A stretch of DNA of 64,000 bases from Eledone cirrhosa (taxonomy: Eukaryota): the NCBI GenBank assembly GCA_964016885.1, contig OZ024747.1, positions 67,952,001 to 68,016,000 of the forward strand, given 5' to 3'. The notes under the pieces were generated by a model. It worked only from the letters and a program-made list of their open reading frames with translations, was not told the origin of the DNA and did not search any database. Shown piece by piece: positions 22,600 through 55,103 of the stretch. Every line of letters begins with the position of its first letter. Positions within the stretch are counted from its first letter, which is position 1. The position numbers were made by a program, and so were the translations under genes.

Positions 22600-22791
22600 G
22601 GATAAAGTATGACCCCGACGGCAGAGCTCAAACCGTTTCGACGGCTATTTCTGGTCCAGAAATAGCCGTCAAAACGGCTTGAGCTCTGCCGTCGGGGTCA
22701 TACTTTTTCCTATTACCCACTCTACTACCCTAAGTATTGAGTACTCTGGTGCGTTATGGTCCATCTGGTTCCTTACCACAATTCCTTCGTT
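22600..22791 (+). mobile_element. Fold-back PLE pLTR mini-insertion in (TA)n
   Basis: Homologous to 2866-3002; inverted arm 22600-22654 ends at tcc|TA; forward arm ends at ttcgt|T(TA). Confidence 0.9.
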
Positions 22792-22872
22792 TTATATATA
22801 TATATTTCTCTCTCTCTCTCTCTCTCTCTCTCTCTCTATATATATATATATATATATATATATATATATATA

Positions 22873-23880
22873 TAAACGTTTGTATATGTATAATAAAGCC
22901 AAAAACAATGCAGGTATGGACATAGAATAAAGAATGCAAATGCAAAAGATATTGTTGACAATTAGTCTTTTACCTTAGATTTATTTAAATGTCCTTAATT
23001 TTCGAGATAATATCTCTTCTTCAGAGGAAGTAAAGCTCTCAAACCAGTGTTCTAAATAGCTTGCCAAGTCATGCTGACAGGAAATGGTATAGAGTATCTG
23101 TTCTATCTCTAATGTCAAAGAGTTAAAATTAGGTGGATAAAGAGTAGTCTCCCTTTAAAAGGGGTTTGTTTTTTGTTTTTTTTTGTTTTTTTATACATGC
23201 CTGTTTAAGTGTGTGGGAGAATGCATGAAGGTGTAAGTATGTGAGTGTGTGTGTGTGAGTGTGAGAAGATATGTCTATTCGTAAATGTGGGGATAGGTGT
23301 TATCTGGTGTTAGAACTGGTTTTGTGTGTGTATGTGTGAGAGAGAATAAGTGGAGGTGTAAGCGTGTGTGTGTGCGCGTGCGTGTGTGTGGGGGTGTGTG
23401 TAAATATGGGGCTAGAAGCCCTATCAGGTTATAAATTGGGTGTTGAGTTCTACTCTATTATTGATTGGTGTTTGTGTTTTATCTATAATTAGTGCTTCCT
23501 TAATTCTAAGATTGCCAAGGTTTCTTTCCTTAGTTTCTATCCTAACTGTTATGGTTTTGTCGGTGTTTTTGGATTTAACTAGGTGTTTCTTAAATGAGGA
23601 AGCGTTAGTATTGAGGTGTTCTTTTATTCTTATGTGGAGTGGTCTGGTGGTGCTACCTACGTAGAAGTTGTTGCATTTGTCACACTCTAGCCTGTATACG
23701 ACGTAAGCCTGGTGGCATAGGTCTGTGTCGTTGATGGGGCAGTTGGCTAGTCTGCAGCAGTTGTCATGTCTGGTGGAGTGTCTTTTGGTTAGCTGTCTGC
23801 ATTGTTTTGGCTTTATTATACATATACAAACGTTTATACCTCATTACACAATGCTTGAAGTGAACTATAACCTCCTCCCA
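22873..23880 (-). mobile_element. 5'-truncated PLE (GIY-YIG end + 3'UTR + HHR) with inverted 5' segment
   Basis: Minus frame ~23800-23424 reads [31 protein letters not shown]...LRIKEALII...INN*. 23797-23838 is the inverted copy of 22871-22913. (TA)n on both sides. Confidence 0.85.
22992..23028 (-). ncRNA. Minimal type I hammerhead ribozyme
   Basis: TCCT CTGAAGA A GAGAT-ATT-ATCTC GAAA AT TA AGGA; palindromic minimal stem III (AATT), typical of PLE HHRs. Confidence 0.8.
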
Positions 23881-24343
23881 TATATATATATATATATATA
23901 TATATATATATATATATATATATATATATATATATATATATATATATATATATATATATATAATATATATATATCTATATATATATATATATATATATAT
24001 ATATACATATATATACATATATATATATACATATATATACATATATATACATACATATATATATATATATATACATATTTATTTATTTATATATATGTAT
24101 GCATATATATACATATATATTATATATGTAATATATATATATATATAATATATATATATATATATATATATATATATATATATATATATATATATATATA
24201 TATATATATATATATATATATATATATATATATATAGAGAGAGAGAGAGAGAGAGAGAGAGAGAGAGAGAGAAATAAATATATATATATTATAATGTAAG
24301 AAGAAATAGTAGACACAGATATATACCTATTTTTTCTTCAATG

Positions 24344-24434
24344 TCCCGACTGTACAGTTTCGCTGGTCTGTATGCAAGAATCTTACATCATAGAGAGGTA
24401 AGATTGTTGTGAGGTAAGCCAGCTTTTCAAGGGA
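24344..24434 (-). ncRNA. Type I hammerhead ribozyme, U3-A8 variant (second family)
   Basis: TCCC TTGAAAA GCTGG...(inner hairpin AATCTTAC/GTAAGATT)...CCAGC GAAA CTGTACAG TC GGGA. Confidence 0.78.
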
Positions 24435-24606
24435 ACACCTCAGGGAAAGAGCGCTTCTAGACATGTCCATAGCATGCGAGAAAATCTCAAAAGGCGGTGG
24501 GAGATACTATCACGTGATACACCGGTCAAAATATGTGTGTATATATACATGTGTATGTATGTATGCACATATATGTCTGTACCTCTCATTATATATATAT
24601 ATATAT

Positions 24607-24775
24607 AACGAAAAAAATGTGGTAAGGAACCAGGTGGACCATAACGCACCAAAGTACTCAATACTTAGGGTAGCAGAGTGGGTAATAGGAACGAGTAGGA
24701 CCCCGACGGCTGAGCTCAAGCCGTTTCGACCGTCGAAACGGCTTGAGTTCAGCCGTCGGGGTCCCACTCGTTCCT
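24607..24775 (-). mobile_element. Fold-back PLE pLTR mini-insertion in (TA)n
   Basis: Long arm on minus ends ttcgt|TA; short plus arm 24731-24775 ends ttcc|TA. Confidence 0.9.
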
Positions 24776-24828
24776 ATATATATATATATATATATATATA
24801 TATATATATATATATATATATATATATA

Positions 24829-24930
24829 GGAAAAAGTATGTCCCCGACGGCAGAGCTCAAGCCGTTTCGACGGCATTGAGTACTCTGGTGCGTTATGGTC
24901 CATCTGGTTCCTTACCACAATCCCTTCGTT
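24829..24930 (+). mobile_element. Inverted + forward PLE pLTR mini-insertion in (TA)n
   Basis: 24829-24874 is the inverted HHR 3' half ending ttcc|TA; 24875-24930 is forward, ending ttcgt|TA. Confidence 0.9.
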
Positions 24931-52143: not shown

Positions 52144-52193
52144 ACAGGCTGAAGAAATTGGGACCCAGAACCCAACAAAACTTGAGTACCTGT
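52144..52193 (+). ncRNA. Degenerate hammerhead in palindrome 52061-52198 (mirror copy 52066-52115)
   Basis: ACAGG CTGAAGA aATTGGG...CCCAAC AAAA CTTGAG TA CCTGT; G12>A, so probably inactive. Confidence 0.65.
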
Positions 52194-52317
52194 TTATGTC
52201 ACCGTTATAATTATATATATATATATATATCAAAATAAAGATCCGAAGGCATGGTATAAAATTCCAATCATTTTAATATCAACACACACATACACACACA
52301 TATATATATAGTGGAGG

Positions 52318-52600
52318 TAGGCACGTGGCCTAGTGGTAGGGGTGTTGGACATACGATCATAATGTCGAGGGCTCGATTCCTGGGCTGCATGTTGTGTTCT
52401 TGAGCAAAACACTTCATTTCACATTGCTCCAGTATACTCACCTGAAAATGAGTACCAGCAATAGCTGGAGGTTTAACCCTGCGATGGACTGGCGTCCTGT
52501 CCAGGGGGGGAGTCTTGTACTCTCAGTCGCTTGACGCCATGAAACCGGGATAAGCACCGGCCAAATGAGCCTTCTGGCTTAAGGCAGACTTTAGACTTTT
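52318..52600 (+). mobile_element. tRNA-derived SINE with V/Meta-like conserved central domain
   Basis: A-box TGGCCTAGTGG, B-box GGCTCGATTCC, motif cctgcgatggactggcgtcctgtccagggg. Confidence 0.75.
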
Positions 52601-52614
52601 TATATATATTTATG

Positions 52615-53895
52615 TGATGGCTGCCCCCTCGCTATCGAGTATGTCCATTGTACGATATAACATTATTAATAATTATCAATTAATTCTATCGTGCAATGCT
52701 GTGCGTGAAGATTTTTTTAAAGTGAGGAAAGACTGTGCACAGAGCCAATCCCACTCTCTGAGCGACAGTAGTTGTAACCTGAAAAGAAGAAAAGATCAAC
52801 ATCATCGGTAATTACTGAGCCGTAGGTTTTATGTTGGAGTTATCCCAGTTTCCTGAGTTGCCTCCTCCTAGAAGAATGCTCTGACAAAGGCTAGGGGTCC
52901 TTCACTCCCAGTGGTTTAACCGCGCGATCAGGTATCCAGCTCGACTATTTCTGTGCCCCCGCGCATATACACACATATGTACATGCGTACATACATATTT
53001 ACACATTTTTGGATGGCCGTTGACTCTTATGAGTTCTACCACTCTTTGTCAGGTTTTGTTTTTTGTCCTGCAGGGTGTCCAAAATCACCCTCCTCACCAA
53101 GTAAATTTGGTGGGGTTGCCGGTTTAGTCGCCAACGATCCGACTATGCGACAGGTTGTACTGGGTTATATGTTACCAGTAGCACTCAAGAGTGTCCATAC
53201 ATACATACATACATACATACATACATACATACACACATACATACATACATACATACATACATACATACATACATACATACATACATACATACATGATGAT
53301 GGCTGCAACTTGGTTTCGAGTAATGCCATCGCTTGATACTTAAGTATGAACATCACGGACGTAGCTTTTTAGTCCAGGGAGGGACTTGTCTGTTGTCAGC
53401 AATACCATGCATCGCAAAAATATGTCACATATCACGTGAGGAAAGGCTTTGCACGGGACCAATCCCACTCTCTGAACATTGAATGCATTTACCCAAAAAG
53501 TAGAACTGGTCTACATCATTGGATGCCAACGAAGCCGCAGGTTTTATATCAGGGTGACCTTCTCTGAGAGAGATGTTTTAATGTAGACTACACACACACA
53601 CAAAATTATTGAATGGCCGTTTACTTTTCTGAGTTCCTCCGTCCTTTGACGGGTTTTGTTTTTCATCCAACAGCGTGTCCAAAATCACCCTCCTCACCAA
53701 GCCAGTTTGGTGGGGTTGCCGGTTTAGTCGACGATGACCCGACCATGCACAGGGTGTACCAGGTTACATGTTACCAGTAGTTCATACATACATACACACA
53801 TGCATACATACACACACACACATACATACATACATACATTCATACATACATACATGATGGCTGCCCCCTCGTTATCGAGTATGGCCATTGCACGA
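52615..53895 (-). mobile_element. Tandem copies of a ~500-580 bp non-coding element separated by (CATA)n
   Basis: Units start tgatggctgc at ~52615, 53298 and 53855, and end gttaccagtag + (CATA)n. Confidence 0.8.
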
Positions 53896-54206
53896 GAAAA
53901 AATAAAAGAAAATTAATAAATAAAAAATAAAAGAAAAGAAAAAAAGAAATATATATATATATATATATATATATATATATATATATATATATATATATAT
54001 ATATATATATATATACACACACGCATACACACTCACACACACATATATACACACACATATATACATTAATAACAATAATAATAATAATAATAACAATAAC
54101 AACAATAATAATGACGACAACAACAACAATAATAATATACATATACATATATATATACACACACATGCACACACATAAACATATCTATACACACACACGA
54201 TAGCAA

Positions 54207-54480
54207 CTAACAGCGCTGCGATCGAATGTGGCTTTTTAGCCCAGCCAATGATCTAAAATGTCTTGCACAGAGTCGGCAACCAAAACATTTACTGGGAATA
54301 GTCGGCTGTGGTTGGAGTTCGTGTACTTTTGCATGTCGCTTGAGCCCTCCTGCTGATTTACATTCTCTACCACATGTTTGGCAAGCATGATGAGTAGCAT
54401 CTCCAACAGCAGCCTGGTAGTCAACCACTGGTCTTACTTTATGACTGCGAAGATGACTTTCGAGTCCAGCTATGCACACA
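54207..54480 (-). pseudogene. Fragment with 2-3 C2H2-like zinc fingers, probably an RTE LINE C-terminus
   Basis: AGLESHLRSH; CQTCGRECKSAGGLKRHAKVH; CRLCARHFRSLAGLKSHIRS; no TGEKP linkers. Confidence 0.55.
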
Positions 54481-54978
54481 TTCCACAACATAACACGTTA
54501 GGTCAGGCTACACAAATTGAAGGATGTGATGATGTCATAGTAAGCATCTTTAATAAAACAGTGGCGACATCAAGCGGCTTCTGTGATTTCTAGATTGCAA
54601 ACGTTAACAAAAAAACCGTATAAATGAATATTTTTTTTTTTTTTATCTTCGTCTGAGAGATTTCCGGGCTGAAATATAAGATGATGCTTTCAACATCTAC
54701 TATAGAAACTTTTAGTACACGTTGTTCCAGATCTGCAAACTGCAAGACTCGACACGATTGCTTAACGAGCTAGAATTAATAGCCAAATCACCTAAGCGTA
54801 TACATCACATTCATATTCACATATACACGGACTCACATCTCATGCACCCATGCATATACAAAAGGACAAAAATAGATACATACACATATACATAGATATG
54901 CGTATGCATATAAACAAACACAAGCAAACACAGACACATATACATTCACACAGAAACGCACGCACACACAAGCACACA

Positions 54979-55103
54979 CGTCGAAACGGCTTGAGCTCTG
55001 CCGTCGGGGTTAAACATTTCCCTATTACCCACTCTACTACCCTAAATATTGAGTACTCTGGTGCGTTATGGTCCATCTGGTTCCTTACCACACTTCCTTC
55101 GTT
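54979..55103 (+). mobile_element. PLE pLTR mini-insertion
   Basis: Homologous to 2878-3002; ends ttcgt|TA. Confidence 0.9.

Follow-up and report, generated by a model that had tools for sequence, protein, structure and literature searches.

Stubs of a Hydra-clade Penelope-like element in Eledone cirrhosa end at two fixed sites and may derive from twin internal priming on a linear RNA

How can short inserts of one retrotransposon end at the same two sites, and from what RNA would they be copied? The question is raised by a 64,000-nucleotide stretch of the Eledone cirrhosa genome (GenBank assembly GCA_964016885.1, contig OZ024747.1, positions 67,952,001 to 68,016,000, forward strand; hereafter the window), which holds a large copy of a Penelope-like element (PLE) and five short inserts related to it. 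A sequence-only reading of the window had proposed that TA microhomology lets the two nicked strands of a (TA)n target start synthesis at two fixed internal RNA positions and copy back across a ribozyme cut site, on a circular or uncleaved tandem template. Element positions are given here in the coordinates of the large copy; the two shared ends are called the short (S) and long (L) ends, and the short inserts are called stubs. The five inserts are as follows.

22600..22790, no strand assigned: stub with inverted S arm, 2921 to 2867, and L arm, 2865 to 3001
24608..24774, no strand assigned: stub with inverted L arm, 3001 to 2879, and S arm, 2877 to 2921
24829..24929, no strand assigned: stub with inverted S arm, 2921 to 2876, and nonoverlapping L arm, 2947 to 3001
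46329..46491, no strand assigned: stub with inverted S arm, 2921 to 2860, and L arm, 2865 to 3001, lacking 2902-2935
54979..55102, plus strand: solo L arm, 2878 to 3001, with (CA)n at its left and (TA)n at its right

All five inserts were found where the sequence-only reading had placed them. Its statement that they lie in (TA)n holds in general but not for the insert at 54979, which has (CA)n at its left; this insert has no short arm, and in the insert at 24608 the inverted arm is the long one. The shared ends were confirmed. All five long arms stop at T3001 and pass into a TA repeat, and all four short arms end at C2921, with the large copy ending correspondingly at C6452. Both endpoints lie on a TA, as had been claimed; the element continues with TAT at 2922-2924 and at 3002-3004, so each end can be placed only within 3 nt. 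Most arms (7 of 9) also span the site GTC|GGGG, the exceptions being the long arms at 24875 and 46391. The five inserts are 85 to 93% identical to the large copy, and they therefore derive from older subfamilies, not from that copy.

The same ends recur throughout the 3.0-Gb genome, in which exact pattern matches were counted. The 23-mer upstream of both ends has 10,869 exact copies. The long end runs into a TA repeat in 23,288 matches and reads on into the element in 313, and the young variant of the short end runs into TA in 7,247, with 0 matches genome-wide for the reversed-pattern controls. The genome contains more than 20,000 stubs, and their two ends are nearly always at the two fixed sites. 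Of the 238 loci fetched, 140 were used for distributions, comprising a neutral 23-mer list (L061-L090, L092-L130, and L199-L202) and L131-L197, mostly taken from the long-end list; the distributions exclude the BLAST-ranked loci L001-L060 (chosen for likeness), L091, and nine loci picked by hand. Among 269 outer ends at these loci, 107 fell at 2919-2927 and 148 at 2998-3006, the latter count being inflated because 67 of the 140 loci were picked by the long-end pattern. The other 14 lay elsewhere and mostly represent older copies whose alignments break early. The two sharp peaks expected from the sequence-only reading are thus present, far beyond chance.

The ends were also paired. Head-to-head pairs at the 140 loci joined a short with a long end in 95 cases, two short ends in 2, and two long ends in 1, and 18 had an unclassed end; the corresponding counts in the neutral subset (n = 58) were 50 (2921 with 3001), 1, 0, and 7. 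These 95 asymmetric against 3 symmetric pairs show an inverted 5'-truncated copy with a tail at one end only, the usual architecture of endonuclease-containing (EN+) PLEs (PMC8557442, PMC3846280). The inserts behave as independent events that do not share inversion junctions, with 42 distinct junction coordinate pairs among 65 pairs at the list-driven loci. The short arm reaches at least 15 nt further 5' than the long arm in 18 of the 95 pairs (the reverse holds in 2), the arms of 9 pairs have no overlap at all, and among long copies the arm that extends over kilobases can be the one with the S end or the one with the L end. In 37 of 39 inserts the two arms carry matching variants at subfamily sites; random pairing would give 9.7 (maximum, 18). 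This is consistent with a single RNA or with several from the same locus.

Endpoint peaks and one-short, one-long pairing support the proposal of two fixed internal start sites used by opposite target strands.

2921..2953, plus strand: short (S) start site, C2921|TAT, followed by bulged hairpin 1 (2930-2953)
3001..3031, plus strand: long (L) start site, T3001|TAT, followed by bulged hairpin 2 (3008-3031)

The stretch 2922-3001 forms an 80-nt tail. Each hairpin consists of four pairs, a 2-nt bulge, and four pairs and lies 6 to 8 nt behind its start site; the common variation in hairpin 1 among 183 copies falls in the loop and bulge. Priming by TA microhomology is supported by the TAT at both sites and by 18 other putative head-to-head repeats from the fetched DNA (tails of 36 to 130 nt, families uncurated). 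Thirteen of these 18 showed, by hand count, a TA overlap of at least 3 nt at the short end, at a rough chance rate of 0.13 each. The stubs lack hairpin 2, which probably makes them dead ends that arose from the few hundred read-through loci. Many unrelated head-to-head repeats that have such tails and lie in (TA)n were seen at L133, L151, L162, L186, L190, L191, L219, and other loci, and in several the short end is followed by a motif resembling these hairpins.

The inner ends of the arms bear on the template. They lie within or near the following features, of which the second is the copy in the downstream pseudo-long terminal repeat (pLTR).

2817..2908, plus strand: predicted type I hammerhead, minimum-free-energy topology, located between units
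6348..6439, plus strand: second predicted hammerhead copy, downstream pLTR, both start-site hairpins absent behind it
2835..2869, plus strand: putative promoter and RNA start, with TATTTAAA at 2835 and an initiator-like A at 2860, 2864, and 2869

The predicted hammerhead has stem I at 2817-2820/2905-2908, a variant core TTGAGAA at 2821-2827, stem II at 2828-2836/2874-2881 with an inner hairpin and a long loop, GAAA at 2882-2885, and a palindromic loop III, and it would cut after C2904 (GTC|GGGG). The fifth core base varies among copies, like a free position, and an Rfam search with the predicted hammerhead returned no match. Among 254 arms, 172 inner ends were at 2860-2872, including 17 at 2860, and 25 were at 2873-2895; none fell at 2804-2859, and 17 arms (~7%) continued further upstream. 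The pile-up lies inside the stem II loop, 32 to 44 nt upstream of the predicted cut. It also lies 25 to 34 nt behind TATTTAAA, around the pyrimidine-A steps at 2860, 2864, and 2869, an arrangement that resembles a promoter with a TATA-like box and initiators.

Of the 66 loci with an arm running up against (TA)n, a hand count gave 9 with a single G before A2864 that comes from neither the element nor the target and 2 with a clean C, which a subfamily variant can supply. An extra G at RNA 5' ends has been read as a cap mark in L1 and SVA (PMC4859970). The stem II duplex (-9.5 kcal/mol) is passed by arms, whereas the inner hairpin reaches only -3.4 kcal/mol, and this counts against a structural block. 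The pile-up at 2860-2872 is likely a capped RNA start inside ribozyme stem II, and the RNA would hold half a ribozyme. An RNA starting at ~2860-2869 would have the 3' ribozyme half only, so its arms would cross GTC|GGGG without any circle or tandem RNA. The sequence-only reading was not supported on this point, the need of the stubs for a circular or uncleaved tandem template, as 172 of the 254 arms stop 32 to 44 nt before the predicted cut and a minority stop exactly at it. A recurring untemplated GC right before G2865 was also observed at L111, L124, L199, L203, and L231, in one case in a solo arm.

Self-cleavage after GUC is predicted, with arm ends at 2905 and 2904 as indirect traces. Using a pattern that admits 5' ends at 2893-2907 (n = 52 loci), we counted by hand 22 ends at G2905, 3 or 4 at 2903-2904, 6 at 2906, and 10 at 2907, the last position being the edge of the pattern, which leaves less room for longer arms. 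Arms ending exactly at the cut point to cleaved linear templates. Genome-wide, 27 direct-repeat junctions re-enter at 2860-2868, and 8 of them leave from C2904 (re-entry at 2863-2868). Among the 22 junction loci fetched, two extend a long way upstream, starting from 2904 in L214 and from 2915 in L222; L214 runs from 3004 to 2864, jumps to 2904, and goes on upstream. Another locus (L104) jumps from 2865 to 3822, and in L198 a 257-nt unit (2861-3117) is repeated in tandem, joined at 2861 and not at the cut. The pieces spanning ~2864-2904 may be either the predicted 5' cleavage product or the mark of a second stall. Both cleaved linear RNA and front-end jumps probably occur, but scarred jumps are rare. 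Direct-repeat junctions at L218, L220, L222, L228, and L231 re-enter at 2914-2918, as if re-initiating just upstream of the S site. Within one stub (L228, G000:C1632, positions 798-1497), the 54-nt stretch 2864-2917 occurs in at least 13 tandem copies, which reiterative copying and later minisatellite growth explain equally well.

With moderate confidence, we favor the reading that the stubs are independent head-to-head PLE insertions, made by twin internal priming on one linear RNA with run-off at the RNA 5' end. Transcription would start at ~2860-2869 within ribozyme stem II, and the RNA front would carry only the 3' hammerhead half, giving no cut in cis. The element protein would bind the twin hairpins, and one nicked (TA)n strand would pair with UAU at 2922-2924 while the other would pair with UAU at 3002-3004. 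The two cDNAs, of ~57 and ~137 nt, would extend to the cap, sometimes gaining a C, and would be joined via 0 to 4 nt of microhomology or via short insertions. The ~7% of arms passing 2860 would lead to long or multi-unit copies, the source being read-through RNA, a transfer to the 3' end left by the ribozyme, or a circle.

Several observations weigh against this reading or parts of it. The TATA-like box is only loosely kept in older subfamilies. A two-arm cap test, confounded by the shared partner arm, gave C:T counts of 43:3 at A2864 and 80:15 at the control C2868 (Fisher p = 0.18), and an edge near 2859 would likewise be expected from the inner hairpin (2848-2868, loop 2857-2858). The hammerhead fold has the right topology, but its stability is no better than that of shuffles (z-score, 0) and its core is noncanonical. 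Junctions leaving from 2904 were not significantly more frequent than those leaving from 2910, which has the same GTC (8 versus 3 loci, p = 0.11), and 7 of the 8 junctions at 2904 lead into a piece that covers only ~2864-2904, which a structural block would explain equally. The concordance of the arms could also reflect subfamily age (activity at different times) or gene conversion. In addition, priming in the Poseidon element is described as requiring no homology and having no strand preference (PMC11167929).

A retrovirus-like strong-stop synthesis with strand transfer is a further, more tentative reading with a fairly low probability. The RNA start (~2864) and the cut (2904) would bound a 41-nt terminal repeat, and the split hammerhead halves would pair the two RNA ends. 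The reverse transcriptase (RT) would prime near the front, reach the cap, and jump to the cut 3' end. Repeated jumps would build pLTRs and tandems without a circle, and the tens of thousands of stubs would be failed strong-stop products. In a copy like the large one the downstream pLTR lacks both start-site hairpins, so its RNA could be primed only near its front, and a circle or a transfer to the 3' end would be required for full-length progeny. A literature search that covered few subscription papers found no description of strong-stop transfer or of an RNA start inside a PLE hammerhead.

A template in the form of a 3531-nt circle or an uncleaved tandem RNA, with twin-primed synthesis that crosses the ribozyme junction and in most cases stalls at the extended stem II, appears rather doubtful. 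Such a template agrees with arms that span the cut site and with arms of up to ~4.5 units, whose units differ by 0 to 1 nt in one array, by 2 to 8 in another, and by 0 in a third. Ligation-compatible ends leave traces (5' at 2905 and 3' at 2904), and stops recurring near 2864 after a jump fit a block. A circle was proposed in 2014 to explain PLE tandems (PMC4209133), and unprocessed RNA is the main in vitro substrate in PMC11167929. A circle may be the source of the 1.6-unit and multi-unit arms; multi-unit arrays could arise by read-through too, and seamless junctions look alike under circle, read-through, and transfer. A circular or tandem template does not, however, predict the untemplated G before A2864 or arms that end at the cut itself. 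Few arms halt at the stronger helices 3' of the pile-up (the 25 of 254 at 2873-2895), and the L198 unit is joined at a position other than the cut site. At the inner end of one multi-unit arm (L236, positions 7270-9900), a 55-nt segment of the open reading frame (ORF; element 1086-1143) is repeated in tandem more than 45 times.

It is unlikely that the long-site cDNA turns back on itself, or that an antisense RNA self-primes, with the short end as a termination site. Antisense-template self-priming has been proposed for rotifer PLEs (PMC3846280). Both inner ends lie at 2859-2872 in 65 of the 95 pairs, which makes these near-palindromes; the inner ends are weakly correlated (rho, 0.36), and the arms share subfamily variants. 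Speaking against a fold-back are the 18 pairs whose short arm holds sequence absent from the long arm and the 9 without overlap, as well as short arms that exceed the long arm by kilobases (window 753-6452; L233-L234). Subsequent deletions on one side might account for part of the small differences, though not for those of kilobases. Finally, amplification of one ancestral MITE-like element as DNA, which would give uniform copies with a single internal junction, is very improbable. The junction of the insert at 22600 recurs in the majority of its 30 best BLAST matches, but these head a ranking of 2,435 candidates by their likeness to it, and the stubs have diverse junctions and track several subfamilies of the autonomous element.

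The autonomous element is represented in the window by the large insertion, a young copy inside which the window opens.

753..6452, plus strand: long arm of the large insertion, 1.61 units, stops at the S site, with a TA repeat from 6453
1..752, minus strand: inverted arm of the large insertion, with internal jumps and pieces 2056-2307 and 2782-2957
3095..5248, plus strand: intact ORF, 717 amino acids, predicted RT and C-terminal GIY-YIG-type endonuclease, Hydra-clade motifs

Self-BLAST of the window gave a unit length of 3531 bp, with 753-2924 matching 4285-6455 at 99.8%. The inverted arm extends to the L end 692 bases before the window start, and the large copy follows the rule of the stubs, with its short end at 6452 and its long end outside the window. 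A 224-bp period at 227-753 in the inverted arm results from jumps between element 2056-2081 and 2782-2957.

A Pfam search with the 717-amino-acid ORF gave no match at an E value of 0.001 or below. A homologue search found 2,052 relatives among 7,996 scored candidates, and among the 120 matches listed most were ~40% identical over nearly the full length; eight aligned relatives were 40 to 43% identical at 93 to 100% coverage. The alignment with these eight shows RWR, DKT, the YRDD core, CxCx5C, CxxC, and CxH in the ORF. The Hydra clade of PLEs is defined by such motifs and inserts into (TA)n (PMC8557442). The single ORF joins an RT to a C-terminal GIY-YIG endonuclease, with AYIG in the C-terminal part. 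RWR, as the RWK motif, and DKT, in place of DKG, stand in conserved columns, and the CxCx5C linker is accompanied by CxxC and CxH around E and N, without CCHH. A TA repeat follows 96 of 109 short ends and 139 of 145 long ends, in a sample partly selected on TA. Judged from motifs and alignment, the element is a Hydra-clade Penelope-like retrotransposon.

The window also contains other elements. A truncated second Hydra-like ORF lies at 60792-62006 (plus strand), 33 to 41% identical to the C-terminal half of the main ORF and with a TA repeat close behind it, and a piece of another PLE with a Pfam GIY-YIG match lies at 17317-18243 (minus strand). A non-LTR retrotransposon ORF2 with Pfam RVT_1 and zf-RVT matches occupies 35159-37867 (minus strand), and a related 3' fragment is found at 9466-10200 (plus strand).

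PLEs are the closest relatives of telomerase RT, and the present family bears on how they form their pLTRs, tails, and inverted ends and on the function of the hammerhead. Being young and high in copy number, it gives base-level predictions on two start sites with twin hairpins, one for each target strand, on TA pairing, on an RNA start inside the ribozyme, and on traces of cleaved RNA ends. With an intact ORF at hand, circle, read-through, and strand-transfer models are separable by standard assays.

In L1, the first primer sits at the poly(A) end and the second site is variable, unlike the element studied here, which has two fixed internal start sites and arms copied from one and the same stretch. 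L1 twin priming (PMC4859970) is alike in that the second target strand primes on the RNA to give an inverted arm, and in the untemplated G at 5' ends. Among the closest known systems are Hydra-clade C-terminal EN+ PLEs (Craig et al. 2021, PMC8557442), which share RW(K/R), DKT, CxCx5C, CxxC, CxH, and (TA)n targeting, as well as a pLTR with a hammerhead (predicted in the present element), an inverted 5'-truncated copy, and a one-sided tail. As described there, those elements are below 3 kb with tails of 30 to 40 nt and canonical CTGA-N-GA cores, whereas this element has a 3.5-kb unit, an 80-nt tail, a TTGAGAA core, and a long stem II loop, and unlike them it mass-produces half-ribozyme stubs. 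The stubs are head to head and lack the 5' ribozyme half, which sets them apart from non-LTR retrozymes, tandem noncoding units with a complete hammerhead in each (bioRxiv 10.64898/2026.07.22.740005).

Poseidon_Ac (Frangieh et al. 2024, PMC11167929) is similar in that two internal start sites bound the genomic tail and both target strands are cut and extended; internal initiation at these sites was demonstrated in vitro, and ribozyme cleavage was unnecessary. Its start sites are adjacent, inside the ORF, and described as without target homology or a strand difference. In the present element, an 80-nt distance separates the sites; they precede the ORF, each lies on TAT, and every insert end uses a different one of the two. 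The circular-RNA model (Cervera and de la Pena 2014, PMC4209133) shares a type I hammerhead, here a predicted one, with a palindromic loop III in the pLTR, and close opposite-strand motif pairs, but it does not predict stubs with a 3' ribozyme half ending inside stem II. Altogether, the fixed-end signature and the two-start idea (PMC11167929) and the circle (PMC4209133) are already published, and the literature compared did not describe the strict one-site-per-end pairing, the TA microhomology, the 80-nt tail, the likely start of the RNA within the ribozyme, or arm ends at the predicted cut.

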